A DNA stretch of 64,000 nt from Myxococcota bacterium (GTDB lineage Bacteria > Myxococcota_A > Polyangia > Nannocystales > Nannocystaceae). Location: positions 32,001-96,000 of the forward strand of contig JBCCHT010000043.1 of the NCBI GenBank assembly GCA_039028615.1, in the 5' to 3' direction. The position numbers were made by a program, and so were the translations under genes. The notes under the pieces are model-generated. The model was not told where the DNA came from, did no database searches, and saw nothing but the letters and a program-made list of their open reading frames with translations. Shown here piece by piece: positions 19,887 through 30,980 of the stretch (within the stretch, counting starts at the first letter, position 1; each line of letters starts with the position of its first letter).

Positions 19887-20654
19887 GTGCTGGCGCTGCT
19901 GTTCCCGCCGTCTCTCGGCCACGTCGCGGCGTCAGCGCGAGCCAGTCTGCTCAGTCAGTGGTTTGCCCGGCAGCTCGGGGTCGAAGTCGACATCCGCGTA
20001 GCCGACAGCTACGAGGCCTTGCGCGGTGCCATCGAGCAGGGCGAGGTCGACCTGGCGTGGGCCCCTCCCTTCGTGTGTGCCGCCGTGCAGGAACACGCGC
20101 ACACGATCCTCAAGGCGAGCCGAGGGGGGCAGTCGATGTACCGCTCCGCGATCATCGCCCGCCGCGGGGAGCTGTCGACGGTGGAGGAACTTCCGGGTCG
20201 TCACGCAGCCTGGGTCGACCGACTCTCGACCGCGGGCTACCTGCTGCCCATGGCCCGACTCCGCGGCCTGGGCTACGAGCCCGACGACACCTTCGCCTCG
20301 CAGAGCTTCATGGGTTCCTACGGCCGCGCGGTGCGGGCCGTGCTCGACCGAGACGCAGACCTGTGTGCGGTCTACGTCCGCGACGCGACCACCGAGTCCG
20401 TCGACGAGACTCTGGTCGACCTCGTCGGCGAGACCGACCAGATCCACGCCGTGGACTTCACCGCCGAAGTGCCCAGCGACGGGTTGGTCGTCGTGCAGAA
20501 GAAGGGGCATACCGAGCTCGAGCACGTCGTGGAGCGCCTACGATCGCTGAGCGATGGCCGTACCCACACGATGCTGCTGACGATCTTCGACGCCGAAGCG
20601 CTCGAGCCCGCCAAGCCCAGCGACTACGACGAGCTCCGGCTGGCCCTGCGCTAG
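19887..20654 (+). CDS. PhnD-like phosphate/phosphonate-binding domain protein with no signal peptide
   Basis: SYEAL..AI..GEVDLAW.PP, YRSAII, D.LSTAGYLLP, F.GSY..AV.AVL...AD, VPSD; in-frame TAG at 19875 prevents N-terminal extension. Confidence 0.8.
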   Translation: MLALLFPPSLGHVAASARASLLSQWFARQLGVEVDIRVADSYEALRGAIEQGEVDLAWAPPFVCAAVQEHAHTILKASRGGQSMYRSAIIARRGELSTVEELPGRHAAWVDRLSTAGYLLPMARLRGLGYEPDDTFASQSFMGSYGRAVRAVLDRDADLCAVYVRDATTESVDETLVDLVGETDQIHAVDFTAEVPSDGLVVVQKKGHTELEHVVERLRSLSDGRTHTMLLTIFDAEALEPAKPSDYDELRLALR

Positions 20655-22651
20655 ATCAGCTGCACATCGGCCATGATCTCGACCAATGCGGGGCCCTCGT
20701 AGGCCAGCGCCGCGGCCAGGGCTTCGTCGAGCTGGTCGGCGCGCTCGACCCGGGCCCCGTGGGCACCGCAGATCTTCGCGTACTCGGCAAAGTTGGGGTT
20801 GTGCAGCGAGGTCTGCCACACGTGCCAGTTGCCGGCCCGCTGCTCCTTGCTGATCTTGCCCAGCTCGGCGTTGTTGACCAACACGTGGGTGATGTTCATG
20901 CCGTACTTCACCGCGGTGAGCAGCTCGCCCATGTACTGGCCAAAGCCGCCGTCGCCGGTCACGACGACCACCGGGCGCCCCGCGAAGGACGAACCCTTTT
21001 CTTGGGTCGCCGCCCAGGCCCCCATGCCCGCGGGAAAGCCAAAGCCGATGGAGCCGAGGTACCCGGACATGAGCACGGCGTGGCGCTTGCACTCGAAGTA
21101 GCGGCCGAACGAGTAGGTGTTGTTGCCGACGTCGACCGCAATGATCGCGTCCTCGGACAGGCCGCGGGTCAGCGAGTCGAAGATCGACGCCGAGCTCACG
21201 CCTTGGCCGCGGTCGTCCTGGCGACGCCGGGCCTTCTCGTCGCGCCAGATGGCCCAGCGCTCGGCGATCTGCGGCCGTTGGTCTTCGGTGTGGCTCACCT
21301 CGCCCAGGCGCTCACTCAACGCGGCCACCGTCACCGAAATCTCACCCCACACGGGGATGTCGACGGGGTGGAACTTGCCCAGCATCATCGGATCGAAGTC
21401 GACCTGGATGATGGGCAGCTTGGGGGTGATGCCCGTGTGATTGCTGAAGCTCGCCCCGAGCACGAGCAGGCAATCGGACTCGTTCATGAAGTAGCTGGCG
21501 ATGGGCGTGCCGCTGCGCCCCAGCACGCCGCAGCCCAGGGGGTGGTCATCGGCGATCTGGCCCTTGGCCTTGAAGGTGGTGATGACCGGGCACTGCAGCT
21601 GCTCGGCCAGCGCGGTGACGGCCTCCATGTCGAAGCGCGCACCGTGGCCCACGATGATGACCGGGCGCTTGCTGTGAGAGAGCTTGTCGACCGCGGCGTC
21701 GAGGGCCTCGGGCGGCGGCGCGATGGTGCGAGGCGTCAGCCGCCCCTGGGGCCCCCCCGGCTTGGCGCCCTCGGCCGCAGGCAGGGTCTGGACCTCGTCG
21801 GGGAAGATGAGGTGCGAGACACCACGGTTGAGGATGGCGCTCTTGCTCGCGAGGTTCATCAGCTCGGCGTGCTTGCTGCCGTGCATCACCGACTGTGACC
21901 ACTGGGCGACCTTGCCGAAGGCGGCGACGAGGTCGACCTCTTGGAACGCACCCGGGCCGAGCACCTGCGTGTCGACCTGACCGGTCAGCGCGAGCACGGG
22001 CGAGCGGTCGACGTTGGCGTCCCAGAGCCCGGTGAGCAGGTTGGTCGCGCCCGGGCCCGCGATGGCCAGGCACGCCGCCGGCCGCCCGGTGAGCTTGCCG
22101 TAGGCGGAAGCGGCAAAGGAGGCCGCGCCCTCGTGGCGAATGCCGAAATAGCGCAGGTTGCCCTCTTCCTCTTGGACGCGCAGCGCGTCGGCGAGGCCGA
22201 GGTTGGAGTGGCCCACCATGCCGAAGACGGTGGTCACCCCCCAGGCGACCATGGTCTCCGCCATCACGTCGCTCACCGTGCGGACGTGGGGGAGCTCCTC
22301 TTCGATGGCCACGTAGACGCCATCGTCACGGACCTCGACTTGGAAGGTGTCGACGCCGTCGTCGAAGTCACCGGGAGAGCGACCGGTGGTGGGGTCGTAG
22401 TCCCAGCCATGCCAGGGGCAGCGCAGCAGGCCGTTTTCGATCGACCCCTCGCCGAGCGGGCCGCCCTGGTGTGGACAGCGGTTGTCGAGCGCCGCGAACT
22501 CGCCCTTGAAGTGCGTCATGCACAGGGTCTCGAGCCCGCAGGTCACCGTCTTGACGCGGCCCTCGGGGAGCTCGCTGACGTCGAGCGCCTTGTGCCACAC
22601 GAGGTGGACCTTGCCGTCGCGCTTGTCCGTGTCCTTGCTGCCTTCACTCAT
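20651..22651 (-). CDS. Rieske [2Fe-2S] domain fused to a ThDP-dependent pyruvate oxidase/acetolactate synthase-like enzyme
   Basis: CPHQGGPL...CPWHGW; IRHEGAASF, GPGATNLLTG, TGDGGFGQ...NN. Confidence 0.9.
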   Translation of the reverse strand: MSEGSKDTDKRDGKVHLVWHKALDVSELPEGRVKTVTCGLETLCMTHFKGEFAALDNRCPHQGGPLGEGSIENGLLRCPWHGWDYDPTTGRSPGDFDDGVDTFQVEVRDDGVYVAIEEELPHVRTVSDVMAETMVAWGVTTVFGMVGHSNLGLADALRVQEEEGNLRYFGIRHEGAASFAASAYGKLTGRPAACLAIAGPGATNLLTGLWDANVDRSPVLALTGQVDTQVLGPGAFQEVDLVAAFGKVAQWSQSVMHGSKHAELMNLASKSAILNRGVSHLIFPDEVQTLPAAEGAKPGGPQGRLTPRTIAPPPEALDAAVDKLSHSKRPVIIVGHGARFDMEAVTALAEQLQCPVITTFKAKGQIADDHPLGCGVLGRSGTPIASYFMNESDCLLVLGASFSNHTGITPKLPIIQVDFDPMMLGKFHPVDIPVWGEISVTVAALSERLGEVSHTEDQRPQIAERWAIWRDEKARRRQDDRGQGVSSASIFDSLTRGLSEDAIIAVDVGNNTYSFGRYFECKRHAVLMSGYLGSIGFGFPAGMGAWAATQEKGSSFAGRPVVVVTGDGGFGQYMGELLTAVKYGMNITHVLVNNAELGKISKEQRAGNWHVWQTSLHNPNFAEYAKICGAHGARVERADQLDEALAAALAYEGPALVEIMADVQLI

Positions 22652-22654
22652 GCC

Positions 22655-23539
22655 TCACCCCTTGCCTTGGTTGGAGAGCTCCACGCCGGCCGCGTGGGCC
22701 GTGGAGATGAAGCGAAGCAGGCCCTCCGCCCTCGCCTCGCCGCCGTCGATCTCGAGCAGTCGATCGCCACGGAGCACCGCGCCAGTCCAGCCCTCGGTAT
22801 GCCACTGCCCCCCGGCGGGCAACTCCGGCAGCTCGGCCCCCTGCGGTGCCGGCCAGGGATTGACGTAGACGTAGGGCTGGGCGTAGCTGCCGTCGCCCAG
22901 GCTCACGCCGGCCCCCACCGAGCGCATCGACTCGCCCTCGCCTTCGAGCACGTGCAGCGAGGCCATGTCGAAGTGGTGCGGCCACAGCAAGATCGCCCCC
23001 GCCTCGGGGTGCGTGCCACGGAACCATTGCAGGGTCGCATCGGCCAGCTCGAGCCACGCCGCCAGTTCTTTGCCGTGCGCGACGGCGGGCTCCTCGAAGC
23101 TCGCCCCGTCGGCCACCGGGTGGGCGGGCACATCCCCGAGGTGTCCGGGCCTGACGACCGAGCCACTCAGCTCGATGCCCGCCTCCTGGATCGCCGTCTC
23201 CAGCCAGCCGAAGGCCTCGTCGAGGGTCCGCCCCCGCAGGGGAAAGTGCGCGAGCCGGTCATCGTCGCGCCACAGCCCCAGGGCAAAGCCGGTCACGTCG
23301 AGCGCGGCGTAGATGCCCGTTTCCGGCTCTTTGTCGGTGGCCAGGGTGCCGTGGGCCGCGACCCAGTGCAGCGCGGTATGGCTGTAGTCGTCACGGGCAG
23401 GCAGTACGGAGAACCCGAACGATGCCACCGGTTGAGACGCCCAGTGCAGCGTCAGTCGAGACCCGGCCAGCTCGGTCGCAGGCACCGACCCCAGGGTGGC
23501 GAGCAGGGAGGAGGACGGGGGAACGGCGGTCGTCGTCAT
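22655..23539 (-). CDS. DUF5996-like protein
   Basis: DYSHTAL.W, LWPHHFDMA, G.S.GD....PY.YV.PWP, W..EGW.GAVL. Confidence 0.65.
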   Translation of the reverse strand: MTTTAVPPSSSLLATLGSVPATELAGSRLTLHWASQPVASFGFSVLPARDDYSHTALHWVAAHGTLATDKEPETGIYAALDVTGFALGLWRDDDRLAHFPLRGRTLDEAFGWLETAIQEAGIELSGSVVRPGHLGDVPAHPVADGASFEEPAVAHGKELAAWLELADATLQWFRGTHPEAGAILLWPHHFDMASLHVLEGEGESMRSVGAGVSLGDGSYAQPYVYVNPWPAPQGAELPELPAGGQWHTEGWTGAVLRGDRLLEIDGGEARAEGLLRFISTAHAAGVELSNQGKG

Positions 23540-23606: not shown

Positions 23607-25997
23607 TCACGTCCGCTTGCTGGCCCGCATCACCCGGACCAAATCGGCCTCGTCTTCGGCGAAGGCCACCAGGCGATCGCCGGGCTCGATCTCCAAGTCG
23701 AGCCCGGGATTGACCAGCAGTCGCTTCTGCAGCTCGCCCTGCGGCGACGAGCCCTCGAGCGCCTCCGCGTCGTAGGCGTGCACCGCATTGGTCGCCCGAT
23801 AGAGGCCCAGCGGGATGATGCCCGCGCGTGACTCGAGCCCGTACACGGTTCTTCGGACCGTTCGCCAGGTCTCGCCGTGGAACCACTCGGGCAGGGGCAC
23901 GGTGTAGACCTCGGAGTTGTCATCCCGAAACGAGACGGCGCCGTTGAAGATCTCGGCGAACCCCGGGTCCACGCTGGCGGTCGCCATCCAGCTGTCGGCC
24001 AGCTCGCGCCCCTGCACGGGGATGAGCCAGCGGCGGAAGGGGTCGAAGATCTCCTCGGGGTCTTCGTCGGTGGCCTCGGCGAGGGTGACGGGCAGCGAGT
24101 GCTCCTTGCCCACGTCGTCGCCCGCCAGCGCCGGGTGCTGGAGCGGAGGGGCGACCGAAAAGCCGGTCTTGCCCAGCTCGGGACCCAGCTGCGAGCCGTG
24201 GTGCTCGAACTTGCTGCACGCCTGGTGCACCGCCCGAGCGATGCGCAGCGGGTGATAGCGCGGCCCCTGTTCTTCGTGGTCGGGGCTCTTGAGCACGATG
24301 ACCCGCGCCGCCCGGGGGATCCGCAGGCCCGCCAGGTCCTCGGGCACCTCGGGGTTCTGGTGATAGATGGTCAGCCCCTTCACCCGCGCCAGCTGCAGGC
24401 GAACCCGCCGGGGCAGGGTGTCGGAGACGACCACGTGGATCGGCCGCGAGCGCGTCGGCCCCGGGCTCCGCAGCATGCGGATGAGCTGCAGCATGTCCTC
24501 GCGGAAGTTGAGGATCACGATGTGGTTGCGCAGCCGACGGAAGATCCGGGTCTGGTCGCGCGAGAAGATGTTGGTCAGCGCCGCGGTGAACCAGGCGAGT
24601 GACCCGAGGCCGGCGATGGTCGCCATGGCCCCGATGAAGCGCGCCGTCGAGGACTTGAGCGCCTCCGTATCGAAGTTGCCCGTGGCGAACATGTTCATCT
24701 CCCAGAACGAGTCGTTCAGGGTGCGCACGCGGGCGTTGGAGTCGTGCTCGATGGTCCACACCAAGAAGGTGGCGAGCATGACGATGGTGACGAAGCCGGC
24801 GAAGGGGATCAGCGGGTTGGACAGCTGCCCCTCGAGGTTGGCCTCGAGCGGATCCTTGAGCAGACCGCGGCGCTTGAGCAGCCGCCGCACGAAGAACACC
24901 AGCAGGCCGAGGCCGATGGCCATGGCCAGGTTGCGGAGCCAGCGGGACCGGATCTCGTCGCGCTCGCGCTGCTCGGACACCCGATGCAAGGGGATCGGCT
25001 CCTGCTCGGCAAAGTCGCGCCAGCGGTGCTGGATGCCCAGCGCGTTGTGATCGGGGTGCTGCTCGACCCAGTGCACCGCATCGAGCAGCGCATTGACGGC
25101 GAAGTCGATTTCCTCGGCCCGATCGTCGGGCGGCAACGAGGTCAGCAGCACCGTGGTCACGCACACGGTGGGCACCGCGTAGTCGAGGCCGGGATAGGTG
25201 TCGGCCTCGATCTGGCACACGCGGTAATAGGGGTAGCCGTCGATGAGGCGATCGAGCACCTCGTCGGGCAGCGGGTTGACCGTGGCCACGCCGCTGCCGA
25301 CCACCTGGGCGATGATTTCGTGGCCGGGCTCGGTGGTGCGCAGCATGACCCGCAGGTCGCCGCTGCGCAGGGCCTTGAACGCGGCCGAGCTGCCGCTCTG
25401 CTGGAGCTGGAGTTCCTCGGGCGTCAGCCCGGCCGCCCCCACCAGCACCTTGGCCGTCTCGAAGCTGCCCGAGCCGTCCTTGCCCATGAACAGGCGATGC
25501 TTGGAGAGATCGGTGAACGAGTCCAGTCGCAGCGGGCGACGCACGAGCACGTGCACCGCCCCGTCGGTCATGGCGGAGATGAGGCGCAGGTGCGAGCCGT
25601 GGGCATCCTCGGCGGAGACCTTGCACATGAAGCCGCCGGCCTTCTCGAGCGCCACTTCGTCGGACTCGCCTTCGTCGAGCGCATGGTGGGCGGCCTCGCT
25701 GGCCTTGAACGCCTCGGCGGCCACGTCGTACTGCACCAAGGCAAAGTCGAGCTGGCCCTGCAGCAGCCGATGGATGTTGTCGCAGGACCCCTTGGTGTTG
25801 TGGATGTCGATGCTGATCTTCTCGCCGGTATGCTCGAGGCCTTCGGCCACCGCCTTGGAGATCCGGGTGAACCCGCCCGTCTTGCTGCCCGCGCCCCAGC
25901 GATAAGTGGGCGTGTCCGCGAAGGCCCGCTGCGGGATCGAGCCCAGCAGCAGCACCCACGGGAGCATCAGCACCAGGCGTCGGATCGAGTCCCTCAT
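23607..25997 (-). CDS. TAXI-family solute-binding domain + anchor helix + 2TM K+-channel-type pore + RCK domain fusion
   Basis: Signal peptide; TAXI motifs G..TGGF, TKGS.DNI..L..G..DFALVQ.DVA, VHVLVR, G..GSGS, PLH; M1/pore helix DSFW/M2; RCK NHIVILN, A.RVIVL, LVNPG.D.EIEPGDRLV; start moved to ATG 25997. Confidence 0.8.
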   Translation of the reverse strand: MRDSIRRLVLMLPWVLLLGSIPQRAFADTPTYRWGAGSKTGGFTRISKAVAEGLEHTGEKISIDIHNTKGSCDNIHRLLQGQLDFALVQYDVAAEAFKASEAAHHALDEGESDEVALEKAGGFMCKVSAEDAHGSHLRLISAMTDGAVHVLVRRPLRLDSFTDLSKHRLFMGKDGSGSFETAKVLVGAAGLTPEELQLQQSGSSAAFKALRSGDLRVMLRTTEPGHEIIAQVVGSGVATVNPLPDEVLDRLIDGYPYYRVCQIEADTYPGLDYAVPTVCVTTVLLTSLPPDDRAEEIDFAVNALLDAVHWVEQHPDHNALGIQHRWRDFAEQEPIPLHRVSEQRERDEIRSRWLRNLAMAIGLGLLVFFVRRLLKRRGLLKDPLEANLEGQLSNPLIPFAGFVTIVMLATFLVWTIEHDSNARVRTLNDSFWEMNMFATGNFDTEALKSSTARFIGAMATIAGLGSLAWFTAALTNIFSRDQTRIFRRLRNHIVILNFREDMLQLIRMLRSPGPTRSRPIHVVVSDTLPRRVRLQLARVKGLTIYHQNPEVPEDLAGLRIPRAARVIVLKSPDHEEQGPRYHPLRIARAVHQACSKFEHHGSQLGPELGKTGFSVAPPLQHPALAGDDVGKEHSLPVTLAEATDEDPEEIFDPFRRWLIPVQGRELADSWMATASVDPGFAEIFNGAVSFRDDNSEVYTVPLPEWFHGETWRTVRRTVYGLESRAGIIPLGLYRATNAVHAYDAEALEGSSPQGELQKRLLVNPGLDLEIEPGDRLVAFAEDEADLVRVMRASKRT

Positions 25998-26755
25998 GCG
26001 TCCACCAGCACCAGCAGGCCCGCCGCGTCGCGCACGGGGTGACGGGGACCGGGGTTGATCACCAGCGCGGGGTCGTCCCCCGGCTCGCTCGGGGGCAGCT
26101 GCAGGCCGATGGGCGTCACCGGGCGCCCCTGCTCGTCGCTCTCCACATCGCGAGCCACATCGAAGAAGCTGCCCTCGCGCCACTGCGGCTGGACCTCCCA
26201 CAGCCGCACGCGATAGCGACCACGCAGCAGCCCGTAGACGAACTGGAACACGCCCAGATCGACGCACGCGTGGGCCAGCAGAGCCGCCCGCAGATAGCCG
26301 GGATAGAACACGGTGGCGACGCCGAGCCCCGCGAACTCGTAGGCGGCTTCGGGGTCCTCGACCTCGACGAGGATGTTGGGCACCGCACCGGAGCTGCAGG
26401 CCCGTGCCACCGCCACGCAGGTGAGGCGGGACGCGGCATCGGGCTCTTCGGCGAAGCGATCGGGCAGCACGATCACCGAGCGTGCCGACGCGATGTCGAC
26501 CTGCTTGCGGAGCGTCCGCGCCAGCGGATCGAGGCCTTCGGCCAACCCGGGCGCCTGGACGTACCGCAGCAGCGATCGCGCCGAGCTGTCGGACAAGGCC
26601 TGCTCGACGTCGGCGGCGGCCTCGGTCCCCACACACACCACGGGCGGCAGCTCACCGGGCGAAGGGGGCGCCACTTGGGCCAGGGCTCGGACCAGTCCCT
26701 GTGCTTCGGGTGACCAGTTGATGATCACCATGGGAGCGTAGGGCTTGTCCGTCAC
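25994..26755 (-). CDS. stand-alone RCK (TrkA-N/C-like) gating-ring protein
   Basis: MVIINWS, ARSVIVLPD...DA...L, NILVEVEDPE, LLAHA...G, PIGL...VINPG; stop overlaps the next start (ATGA). Confidence 0.75.
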   Translation of the reverse strand: MTDKPYAPMVIINWSPEAQGLVRALAQVAPPSPGELPPVVCVGTEAAADVEQALSDSSARSLLRYVQAPGLAEGLDPLARTLRKQVDIASARSVIVLPDRFAEEPDAASRLTCVAVARACSSGAVPNILVEVEDPEAAYEFAGLGVATVFYPGYLRAALLAHACVDLGVFQFVYGLLRGRYRVRLWEVQPQWREGSFFDVARDVESDEQGRPVTPIGLQLPPSEPGDDPALVINPGPRHPVRDAAGLLVLVDA

Positions 26756-26854
26756 CGTACCTTCGTCGATCGGGAACGCACGATGCCCCCAATCCCTTCA
26801 TGGGTCAAGACACGCCCATGCTAGGCTTTCCCTTCGTCGCCCGGGCGCCGCCGC

Positions 26855-27679
26855 ATGCCCCCCACCGAGTTCCTGGTCTTGGGCCTGGTGGCCCTGCTCT
26901 CGTTTGGGCTGAGTTACCTCGGCGCATCGGTGGGCTTGGTGTTCGGGCAGCTGCGCCTGCCGATCCTCGTGTACTGGCTGGGCTCGCCCGTCGTGGGGGC
27001 CGCCACCAGTCTGTGCATCTCGGCCGTGGCTGCGCTGGTGGGCGCGGCTCGACACGCCCGCGCGGGACGGGTCGACCCGCGGCTGTTGGTGACGATCGCC
27101 GTTCCGTCGGCCATCGCCGCGTGGCTGTCCGCTCAGATCGCCCCGCGCCTCGACCCCGGCCTCGTCAAGCTCTTCATCGGCCTGACCTTGGTCATCACCG
27201 GCTTGGTGATGCTGTGGTCGATGGCCCGGAGCCGACGCGAGGCGCTCGAGCGCAAGGGGCACGACGGCGCCGACGAGGTTGTCGACGACGATCCCCCCGA
27301 GGACGACGCGGCCCCACGGCCGCAGCTGGTGGCCGAGGTAGGTGTAGGCGCGAGCTTGGGCGCCATCGCGGGTGTTGTGGGGCTCCTGCTCGGCACCCTG
27401 CGATTGCCCGCCATGATGAAGCTCGGGGTCCAGGCCGACCGCGCCGTCGGCACCAACATGGCGATCGGCAGCATCACCGGGCTGGTTGCCGGAACGGCGG
27501 CCATGACCGAGGGGAACGTCGACCTGTGGGCATTCGGGGTGATCACCCCCGCCACCATGATCGGGGCCTATCTCGGCGCCAGCACCACGGGCAAGCTCGA
27601 CAAGGCGACCCTCCGCAAGCTCATCGCCTGGTCGCTGCTCGGGCTGGGAAGTTGGATGGCCGCCGAGCCTTGGTGGTGA
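26855..27679 (+). CDS. sulfite exporter TauE/SafE family membrane protein
   Basis: Duplicated hydrophobic halves with G.....R.P...AATSL and AVGTNM; GAYLGA. Confidence 0.8.
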   Translation: MPPTEFLVLGLVALLSFGLSYLGASVGLVFGQLRLPILVYWLGSPVVGAATSLCISAVAALVGAARHARAGRVDPRLLVTIAVPSAIAAWLSAQIAPRLDPGLVKLFIGLTLVITGLVMLWSMARSRREALERKGHDGADEVVDDDPPEDDAAPRPQLVAEVGVGASLGAIAGVVGLLLGTLRLPAMMKLGVQADRAVGTNMAIGSITGLVAGTAAMTEGNVDLWAFGVITPATMIGAYLGASTTGKLDKATLRKLIAWSLLGLGSWMAAEPWW

Positions 27680-27812
27680 GCCGAACGACGTTGAGGGAAG
27701 ATGCGCGTGATCGAGCGCCACCGATCCCAATTCAAGCCTCTTGCACGTCCATTGACTTGTCTGGGACCATTTGTGGGTATTTCAGCCGATTTCGGCCAGC
27801 CCGCTCACGCAC

Positions 27813-29822
<2,010 letters not shown>

Positions 29823-29825
29823 GGC

Positions 29826-30743
29826 TCAGGCCCCGTGCACGGCGAGGTTCGACACGCCGATGCGCAACTGCAACGTGCCCGAGCGACGCTCGACGATGTT
29901 GCCCGCGTCGCGGATCCCCGCTTTGACCAGCTGCTGGCGCGCTCGGTAGACCCACAGGTTGAGTAGCTGCAGGTCGATGCCCAGGTCCCGCACGAGATCC
30001 TCGCGATGGATCCAGCCGTGCTCGGAGTCCTTGAGGTGCTCACGCTCGCGGTCGGCCAGGCGAATGCGGGCCAGCGCCAGCAACAGCTGCGCGTGGGCAC
30101 GCGGCTCGATCTCCACCTTGCCGTGCTCGTGCGAGAGCCGAACCGCCACGTACTCGCCGTCGCGGCTGACGAAGAAGTCGAGCGAGATCGCATCGAGCGG
30201 CAGCGGCCGGCTCTCTGCGTCGCGGGTCTGGTCGGACACGGTCGGCAGGTAGATCGTCCACGACACGTCGCCGACCACCACGATCTCTCGATCGCTGATG
30301 ACCTTGGTCGCGTCGCCGCTCTCCATGACCCACTGCCCGGTCGCGTCTTCGAACACGGTGACCTCGGGGTTTTCACCCGAAGGCAGGCAGAGCAGGTTGG
30401 AATCGGCCAACACCGCCGGACCGTCGTTGCCCATCGCCATGAGGCGAGGCGGCTCGATCTCGGCCAGCGTGTAGCGGTCTTCGACGTCGCCGAACGCCAG
30501 CAATGAACCACGACCGATCGGCTTGCGCTCGCCCGCAGCGAGTCGCGTGCCGTCGACGAAGGTGCCATTGCGACTGCCGAGGTCTTGGACCATCCAACGA
30601 TCGCCATCCCAAGTGACTTCGGCGTGAAGCCCGGAGACTTGTGGCTGCGCCAAACGGAGCTGACACGCCGAGCCGCGACCCACTACGTGGTGTGCAGCAA
30701 GCACGTGCCCAACCCCCGAACTGAGGTGCTTGAGGAGTGCCAC
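29826..30743 (-). CDS. FHA domain protein with a C-terminal winged-helix-like region
   Basis: VGR...C.L.L..P.VSG.HA, DLGSRNGTFV; C-terminal N.WVYRARQQL...VERR...LRIG; start moved to GTG 30743. Confidence 0.8.
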   Translation of the reverse strand: MALLKHLSSGVGHVLAAHHVVGRGSACQLRLAQPQVSGLHAEVTWDGDRWMVQDLGSRNGTFVDGTRLAAGERKPIGRGSLLAFGDVEDRYTLAEIEPPRLMAMGNDGPAVLADSNLLCLPSGENPEVTVFEDATGQWVMESGDATKVISDREIVVVGDVSWTIYLPTVSDQTRDAESRPLPLDAISLDFFVSRDGEYVAVRLSHEHGKVEIEPRAHAQLLLALARIRLADREREHLKDSEHGWIHREDLVRDLGIDLQLLNLWVYRARQQLVKAGIRDAGNIVERRSGTLQLRIGVSNLAVHGA

Positions 30744-30980
30744 TCGGAACACCGTATCATCTCGCGGCGAGCCCGCTGGTTGTCCGGCGCACACTTCGTG
30801 TCTGCGCCCCGTGGGTGCCCTGCTCACGAATTCACGCCTCCGGGTGTGAATTTGGGTCTAGGCCCCACGATGGGTTTCGAATATCAGGGTTCGCCGTACA
30901 CGAGATTCTTCACGCCGCGGGGACGAGTTCATCGCCTTTTTTCGTGGCCCGCGAAGCCGGACTGAGACAATGGAATTCCC

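Follow-up and report, generated by a model that had tools for sequence, protein, structure and literature searches.

A TAXI binding domain fused to a pore-loop module and an RCK domain, encoded with a soluble RCK partner in Nannocystaceae: probably a chemically gated ion channel of an undescribed kind

To our knowledge, few prokaryotic channels are gated by a ligand from the outside. In GluR0, which joins a binding domain to a pore, the pore is inverted. The S1 and S2 segments of GluR0 flank its pore (PMC2950845), while MthK obtains four extra RCK domains by an internal start at Met107 (PMC2154359) and binds ions with residues D184, E210 and E212 (PMC9440719). The filter of the plant symbiosis channel CASTOR, ADSGNHA, requires D265; for CASTOR and DMI1, K+ versus Ca2+ selectivity is disputed and the intact pore was unsolved as of 2019 (PMC6697748). 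TAXI-type binding proteins, e.g., VcGluP with Q93 as key ligand residue (PMC11574862), can also work with non-TRAP carriers such as GltS (PMC12344293). The TSUP proteins, for which characterisation is poor, are predicted to transport sulfur compounds (PMC5840216). The locus treated here lies in a stretch of 64,000 nucleotides (the window) of a Myxococcota bacterium of the family Nannocystaceae (GenBank assembly GCA_039028615.1, contig JBCCHT010000043.1, positions 32,001 to 96,000). Two genes on its minus strand encode a soluble RCK of 253 amino acids and a protein of 796 amino acids, in which a signal peptide, a TAXI domain, an extra helix (TM0), the pore module of M1, pore helix and M2, and an RCK follow each other. 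Together, they probably make up a chemically gated ion channel of a kind not described before.

This layout, put forward in a preliminary description of the sequence with TM0 as an anchor helix, was borne out by profile matches and an AlphaFold2 model. Likewise, the upstream gene indeed encodes a protein that folds as an RCK, and its stop codon is shared with the channel start in an ATGA, which suggests translational coupling of both genes. The proposed pair is conserved: of 73 genomes of the family Nannocystaceae, 37 carry the soluble RCK, and exactly these also carry the pore-RCK part; in the 30 loci fetched out of these 37 the channel gene always directly follows the soluble RCK gene, with an in-frame (A/G)TGA overlap in 29. 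The same order recurs at one locus of another family. A search of longer proteins, with 8000 candidates scored, revealed no fusion of the soluble RCK, although such evidence is weak. The close homologues of the channel protein (n = 120) include named members of Paraliomyxa, Enhygromyxa, Pseudenhygromyxa, Plesiocystis and Nannocystis. A frame of 1009 amino acids from 26636 was rejected as the channel gene, since its open frame extends back beneath the RCK gene and the homologues begin at the equivalent of 25997. The N-termini of the homologues are variable and end in A-x-A; this motif, together with a hydrophobic stretch, points to cleavage of residues 1-27 as a signal peptide.

The AlphaFold2 model of the channel, built from a family alignment of 133 rows (predicted local distance difference test, pLDDT, 87.2; predicted template modelling score, pTM, 0.67), features helix 339-376, M1 at 396-417, the pore helix at 427-438, a loop at 439-449, M2 at 450-479 and, at 493-795, a two-lobed RCK, whose N- and C-lobes were likewise recovered by profile and structure comparison. 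The single long helix 339-376 spans the membrane as TM0 and leads via a short cytoplasmic linker into M1, and M1, the re-entrant pore helix with its loop, and M2 form a pore-loop module of the two-transmembrane type. Pore and RCK of the model match full-length MthK in Foldseek (E 1.2e-10), and residues 400-795 align with MthK chain 6oly_D at Z 15.5 (rmsd, the root-mean-square deviation, 8.8; 302 aligned). Lysine and arginine residues number six in residues 371-394 and five in residues 480-491, whereas residues 418-449 hold three of them beside five acidic ones (D/E). This charge distribution fits a TAXI domain and filter outside and an RCK inside, which would set the pore upright as in K+ channels and not inverted as in GluR0. 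The protein is very probably an ion channel. As a further observation, the turret carries an E-x-x-x-N motif (E417 and N421; 24735-24749, minus strand) in 120 of 120 homologues, with E417 in 133 of 133 family rows; it may serve for docking or as a cation site between TAXI domain and pore.

The pore had been described as being of the K+-channel type. The fold bears this out, but the filter does not: ATGNF is found in all 120 close homologues, the filter reading TGNF(D/S), and the TVGYG signature in none of these 120. In the wider family (complete counts of the filter columns), the filter is mostly SG[FL]E with an acidic residue, and the segment is collinear with K+ pores from the pore-helix tryptophan to a post-filter P-x-T. 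Because of the filter TGNF(D/S) and RCKs closest to those of CASTOR/DMI1, K+ selectivity is unlikely, and the sequence would suit a cation pore that is not K+-selective. Still, a filter unlike any characterised, from whose sequence selectivity is unreadable, could also belong to a conduit for an organic solute or anion that is fed by the binding protein and not gated as a cation channel, and TAXI domains are, in the sources drawn on, known only from uptake systems. The collinearity with K+-channel pores and the acidic filter residue in the wider family, as well as RCKs that are closest to cation channels, speak against such a conduit, which is considered very improbable.

The TAXI domain is recognised by TIGR02122 (108.9 bits, cut-off 84.35) and PF16868 (96.6 bits) and superimposes on the structure of VcGluP with Z 30.5 and an rmsd of 2.7 Å over 289 residues. 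It is the only TAXI domain in the host genome, which is 96.7% complete. The earlier remark that no TRAP membrane subunit lies nearby holds and can be extended, as no TAXI-type TRAP permease (TIGR02123, fused DctQM) passes the cut-off in this genome; two DctM genes do, both on other contigs. The extra cysteines noticed before are conserved as well: C72, C125, C261 and C279 are present in 115-119 of 120 homologues, the remainder being gaps. For the pocket, defined after VcGluP by Y45, S75, Q93, E125, Y200 and M201, sequence alignment gives F43, S71, Q89, D145, G146 and R220. Of 120 homologues, 115 retain S71 and Q89, the equivalents of S75 and Q93, but Y45 is replaced by F43 (phenylalanine in 95 of 120), E125 by G146 (G/S/A in the clade) and Y200 by R220 (retained in 95 of 120); D145 and E180 are nearly invariant in the clade. 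In the wider family, the VcGluP pattern persists (Y45 and Q93 each in 99 of 99, E125 in 89 of 99), which points to an amino acid as its ligand. In the clade, the loss of two amino-group ligands and the gain of an arginine make glutamate doubtful and suggest an organic anion as the more likely ligand.

The same alterations (tyrosine to phenylalanine, loss of the amino-binding glutamate, gain of four cysteines), the long branch of 1.35 and the existence of relatives without TAXI would also suit a two-gene RCK cation channel gated from the cytoplasm only, whose TAXI domain is a disulfide-stabilised structural cap or assembly domain. Nevertheless, the near invariance of S71, Q89, D145 and E180 and the prevalence of R220 make the pocket look retuned, Q89 is invariant in all 133 rows of the family alignment, and two TAXI domains are present in some members, so that a mere cap is regarded as unlikely. 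These tandem-TAXI versions comprise 6 of the 120 homologues (P0043, P0053, P0058, P0059, P0062 and P0072) and such versions were also noticed at L009/L015 (genome G004) and L134 (genome G462).

Concerning the two RCKs, the model of the soluble one (pLDDT 89.2) has MthK (Z 13.0), GsuK (12.7) and the Kch RCK (12.4) as the best structure matches listed, and soluble and attached RCK are homologous (hhalign 96.4%) at a sequence identity of 23%. MthK, cited before as the example of an octameric RCK ring, holds as a match of pore plus RCK, but as the nearest model it gives way to CASTOR/DMI1, whose RCK is the closest solved one by profile: the family RCK profile matches CASTOR with E 6e-38, DMI1 with 4e-35, BK with 6e-19 and MthK with 4e-16. 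In addition, the structure match of the model to CASTOR is tied for best (Z 15.8, rmsd 3.0, 232 aligned). Profile and ion-site acids thus identify a CASTOR-type RCK; PF06241 passes its cut-off in relatives, while the Pfam scan of the 796-amino-acid protein itself gave no PF06241 match.

In the soluble RCK, D106, E131 and E133 presumably correspond to the ion-site residues D184, E210 and E212 of MthK, going by motif positions. CASTOR residues were counted through the profile alignment, with the offset checked on H463, F489, N491 and E493 (PMC6697748). By this mapping, D442/D444 correspond to D134/E136 of the soluble RCK, acidic in 120 of 120, and E493 and E552-D554 to E696 and E781-E783 of the attached RCK (108-116 of 120), which are missing from the soluble one. 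D106 of the soluble RCK is present in 120 of 120; this aspartate is conserved in the wider family and lost from the attached RCK. A clean split of the ion sites between both RCKs is only partly upheld, as the attached RCK also has the acids D644 (98 of 120) and D646 (112 of 120), and the differences come down to cluster II, which is confined to the attached RCK, and D106, which is confined to the soluble one. The motif GxGxxG after the first strand occurs in none of 133 attached and none of 32 soluble RCKs. Its absence and the conserved acids in place of the CASTOR ion ligands make a divalent cation a more likely RCK ligand than a nucleotide.

The proposed interaction of the two RCKs is supported by a 1+1 complex model with a score of 0.81, the best control reaching 0.00; the runs share at least 90% of contacts, and the partner has a pLDDT of 86. 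Of solved pairs, 116 of 157 attain the mark for this score, and of mismatched pairs 2 of 215; for the alignments used, these counts are only approximate. The predicted contacts (chain 1, 663-688 and 712-733; chain 2, 152-185 and 197-219) involve helix-swap and C-lobe surfaces, which we take to be the flexible interface. Besides, relatives with natural tandem RCKs exist. A heteromeric gating ring is likely.

The wider family was examined in the best 150 of 5030 profile matches, from which 78 single-RCK proteins (approximately 700-840 amino acids) and 21 two-RCK proteins (approximately 1000 amino acids) were aligned, fragments and TAXI-only proteins being excluded. The relatives pass the Pfam cut-offs of Castor_Poll_mid, Slo-like_RCK and TrkA_N, and one of 20 scanned (P0259) that of Ion_trans_2. 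Family loci were found in Planctomycetota, Cloacimonadota, Verrucomicrobia and others; atlas clusters belong mostly to Acidobacteriota and Bacteroidota, among few members of known phylum. A scan of the phylum found the channel in at least 3 of 401 genomes, in a stricter first look for which only four other genomes of the host family had been drawn. The clade of the 796-amino-acid channel forms a single branch of the wider family (support 100/100) on the above-mentioned long branch. Two members stem from contigs labelled as archaeal (L020 and L043; a Pacearchaeota metagenome-assembled genome and an uncultured archaeon), and the family gene at L033:4806-7091 is split over four frames, representing a pseudogene or an assembly error. 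Conserved neighbours of the channel gene are shared by Planctomycetota loci, with clusters in 9-13 loci (L027, L030-L032, L034-L036, L038-L040, L044, L045, L049).

The 796-amino-acid chain contains one RCK, the second being encoded by its own gene, and the relatives appear from their sequences to supply the extra four RCKs in three ways, namely by an internal start, by tandem RCKs or by a second gene. Among the single-RCK proteins, 71 of 78 have a methionine just before the first RCK strand, in a linker window chosen after viewing the alignment; for tandem proteins the count is 6 of 21 and for members of this clade 11 of 34, at a background of 12-13%. From 80 wider-family loci, the 42 matching beyond TAXI were scanned and the 38 TAXI-only ones dropped; the 42 comprise 27 with TAXI and pore in one frame, one broken and 14 without TAXI or cut. 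In the 27, the linker ATG is accompanied by a ribosome-site match of at least four bases in 24 loci (other in-frame ATGs, 32 of 248) and of at least five bases in 18 (2 of 248). A second RCK gene was found in none of these 27, although in nine of them the sequence on one side is shorter than 700 bases. The 14 loci without TAXI or cut include three of Vulcanimicrobiota that feature a second RCK gene but lack a ribosome-site match; of the other 11, 10 have the match and none a second RCK gene. In the clade of the 796-amino-acid channel, a weak linker match was seen in one of 12 loci and a second RCK gene was always present; the gene of the window itself has no linker start codon with a ribosome site. 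Many of these loci are close kin, so the counts are to be read as patterns, not as statistics.

These distributions also bear on the role of the soluble RCK, which might be an accessory or inhibitory subunit of a ring made of attached RCKs, with or without proteolytic fragments. The low identity of both RCKs (23%) leaves room for this, and the heterodimer alone was modelled. Yet the clade is devoid of an internal start, soluble RCK and channel strictly co-occur and are coupled, and internal start and second gene are inversely distributed in the relatives, and this role is rated as barely credible.

For the origin of the soluble RCK, both fission and duplication come into question: FastTree places the clade of the 796-amino-acid channel beside the tandem-RCK clade (97), which would suggest fission, but IQ-TREE on 40 rows gives this placement no support, leaving the fork open. 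In a tree, soluble and attached RCK join (85) between long branches, and dropping each in turn placed neither. In the Vulcanimicrobiota loci (L026:4986-7089, L029:1-1918, L054:4938-7047), pore-RCK genes are followed by a stand-alone duplicate RCK, with TAXI absent in the two complete ones. Both RCKs are sisters there (support 100), and the pair is, as predicted from these sequences, a second, independent two-gene ring. Further TAXI-less pore-RCK channels have filters such as SGLED, SGFEE, LGEYG and TGFAD, mostly with the internal-start signature (L028, L037, L046-L048, L050, L051, L053, L059). Genomes related to the host also hold other pore-RCK genes, one with the unusual filter MSGEPIG and one with the canonical TTGYGD, at L013:1123-2544 and L014:874-2382.

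A gene for a TauE/SafE (TSUP) permease, missed in the preliminary description, stands head-to-head with the RCK-channel pair in 27 of 30 loci. Of the 37 genomes with the channel, 34 have this gene, against 0 of 36 others (E 1e-20, one query), a link that block inheritance could explain in part. This association raises the alternative that the TSUP permease is fed by the TAXI domain as a tethered binding protein, with the channel part separately regulated, as TAXI proteins serve GltS and can thus deliver to non-TRAP carriers (PMC12344293). However, the fusion to the pore is kept in many phyla, whereas the wider family yielded only two weak TauE matches (E ~1e-4) in 46 loci, and three genomes of the family plus G122, from another one, retain the channel without TauE; this alternative is judged quite unlikely.

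The preferred reading, which retains the mechanism of the preliminary description with K+ and glutamate both in doubt, is a channel gated from both membrane faces. Four copies of the 796-amino-acid protein would assemble in the inner membrane into an upright pore-loop cation channel with the filter outside, probably non-selective or permeable to Na+/Ca2+ and not K+-selective. Each attached RCK would pair with one soluble RCK through the flexible interface, recreating the RCK1-RCK2 unit of CASTOR from two genes, and four such pairs would build an eight-RCK gating ring, most likely responsive to Ca2+ or Mg2+ from the cytoplasm. In the periplasm, the TAXI clamshell would bind a small solute, which may be what the co-inherited TSUP permease transports, and on closure pull the continuous helix TM0, whose cytoplasmic linker would be positioned beside the M2 gate like the S4-S5 linker of a voltage-gated channel. 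As a whole, this model with TAXI outside and a two-gene RCK ring inside is held to be moderately probable.

Several points weigh against it. The pore segment alone stays below significance in sequence comparison with solved channels (KCNQ, E 0.24), and the domain scan of the 796-amino-acid protein gave no match to a Pfam pore family. At a pTM of only 0.67, the position of the TAXI domain relative to the pore is uncertain. Ca2+ selectivity is not transferable to a filter devoid of the aspartate that is essential in CASTOR (D265). The result for the dimer may reflect its likeness to solved MthK and CASTOR dimers. The genomes counted for co-occurrence are related, and the counts therefore overstate independence. 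TauE is missing at three exception loci among the 37 channel genomes and at one locus of another family, and the TAXI-less relatives indicate that the core can function without a sensor. A more far-reaching version, which is put forward tentatively as a rather doubtful proposal, would be the myxobacterial branch of an undescribed prokaryotic receptor-channel family that arrived at its union of binding domain and pore independently of ionotropic glutamate receptors (iGluRs), with an upright, Ca2+-permeable, CASTOR-like pore, a TAXI domain acting via an S4-like helix outside and a two-gene ring with diverged ion sites inside. With the TSUP permease, it would constitute a release-and-sense loop for an organic anion, sulfur-containing or other, giving rise to membrane-potential or Ca2+ signals in a social bacterium.

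No description of the TAXI-pore-RCK architecture was found in the open literature searched; most subscription papers and the supplements lay outside this search, and domain tables of surveys could list it. In the main text of the TAXI papers PMC12344293 and PMC11574862, the word "channel" occurs 0 times. If the preferred reading is true, this is a channel gated from both membrane faces with an unstudied filter. It is also a relative of the plant symbiosis channels CASTOR/DMI1 that is bacterial and can be expressed. Moreover, nature has in effect run an experiment on RCK rings in this family, in which the four extra RCKs would come from an internal start, a tandem fusion or a second gene, and the two-gene form allows separate mutation or removal of each ring half. 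The linked TSUP permease is a concrete lead to the ligand.

Table 1. Coordinates of the features of the locus within the window.
Feature	Position	Strand	Basis
Channel gene, 796 amino acids	23607..25997	-	translation of the window, profile matches, AlphaFold2 model, structure comparison, 120 homologues
Probable Sec signal peptide, residues 1-27, end A-F-A	25917..25997	-	sequence, hydropathy, homologue N-termini
TAXI (NMT1_3) domain, residues 28-345, four conserved Cys	24963..25916	-	profile, structure comparison, pocket alignment
TM0 membrane part, residues 352-375, helix continuing from TAXI C-terminus	24873..24944	-	model, hydropathy
M1 outer helix, residues 396-417	24747..24812	-	model, family alignment
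Pore helix, residues 427-438, and filter T439-G-N-F-D443 in place of TVGYG	24669..24719	-	model, alignments
M2 inner helix, residues 450-479, invariant G463 and G465	24561..24650	-	model, homologue alignment
Attached CASTOR-type RCK, residues 490-795, keeps E696, E781-D782-E783	23613..24530	-	profile, structure comparison, residue counts
Soluble RCK gene, 253 amino acids, GTG start, keeps D106, E131, D134, E136	25994..26755	-	translation of the window, fold model, structure search, residue counts
ATGA stop/start overlap	25994..25997	-	sequence; translational coupling inferred
99-bp divergent gap between RCK-channel pair and TauE gene	26756..26854	.	open reading frame layout
TauE/SafE (TSUP) permease gene, 274 amino acids, head-to-head	26855..27679	+	PF01925 129.4 bits, co-inheritance counts

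Unlike TauE, the downstream neighbours do not persist across loci. Genes for a DUF5996 protein (22655-23539, minus strand), which lies directly downstream of the channel and is kept in two loci of close relatives, and for a Rieske [2Fe-2S] domain fused to a thiamine-pyrophosphate enzyme (666 amino acids; 20651-22651, minus strand) were rejected as parts of the system, since they recur in at most two other loci. Farther along, a PhnD-like phosphonate-binding protein is encoded at 19887-20654 (plus strand); the list of open reading frames shows no evident ABC transporter next to it. Near the TauE gene, the minus strand holds what looks, from its motifs, like a fusion of Ser/Thr kinase, receiver and nucleotide cyclase (27771-29822) and an FHA-type protein (29826-30827).

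Among the known systems, CASTOR/POLLUX/DMI1 (6o6j, 6o7c, 7vm8) share the closest solved RCK by profile, a membrane helix before the pore, a non-GYG filter with the (S/T)GN triplet, and ion-site acids that map across (D442/D444, E493, E552-D554). The present channel differs in being bacterial, in its periplasmic TAXI domain, in RCKs on separate genes instead of in tandem in one chain, and in a filter ATGNF(D/S) with, in the motif-matched register, alanine at the position of D265 in ADSGNHA. With MthK (1lnq, 6oly) it has in common the order M1-pore-M2 with one RCK per subunit, which needs four extra soluble RCKs, and an internal start like that of MthK seems to operate in most single-RCK relatives; in contrast, the clade possesses neither TVGYG nor an internal start, has TM0 and TAXI in addition and would form a hetero-octamer where MthK forms a homo-octamer. 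The TAXI domain resembles VcGluP and TtGluBP (8s4j, 9ibo, 1us4) in fold (Z ~30), in a TIGR02122 score over the cut-off and in the equivalents of S75 and Q93. Compared with these and with TAXI-TRAP and TAXI-GltS systems, it is fused to a channel, in a genome with no TAXI-TRAP permease over the cut-off, and shows Y45 to F, E125 to G/S/A and Y200 to R exchanges and four cysteines. GluR0 and prokaryotic iGluR-like proteins likewise fuse a clamshell binding domain to a pore-loop module, but in GluR0 S1 and S2 flank the pore, whereas the present binding domain belongs to another family and precedes the pore as one intact N-terminal unit, and an RCK is present. A two-gene precedent for an octameric ring from two RCK chains is given by TM1088A/B of Thermotoga maritima (3l4b; PMC4380455), where two soluble RCKs work for a Trk transporter; in GsuK and BK, two RCK domains likewise build an octameric ring, albeit with both in one chain. 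Although the tests that define K+ channels, CASTOR, MthK, iGluRs and TRAP systems each leave it outside, it would work like an RCK-gated pore-loop channel.

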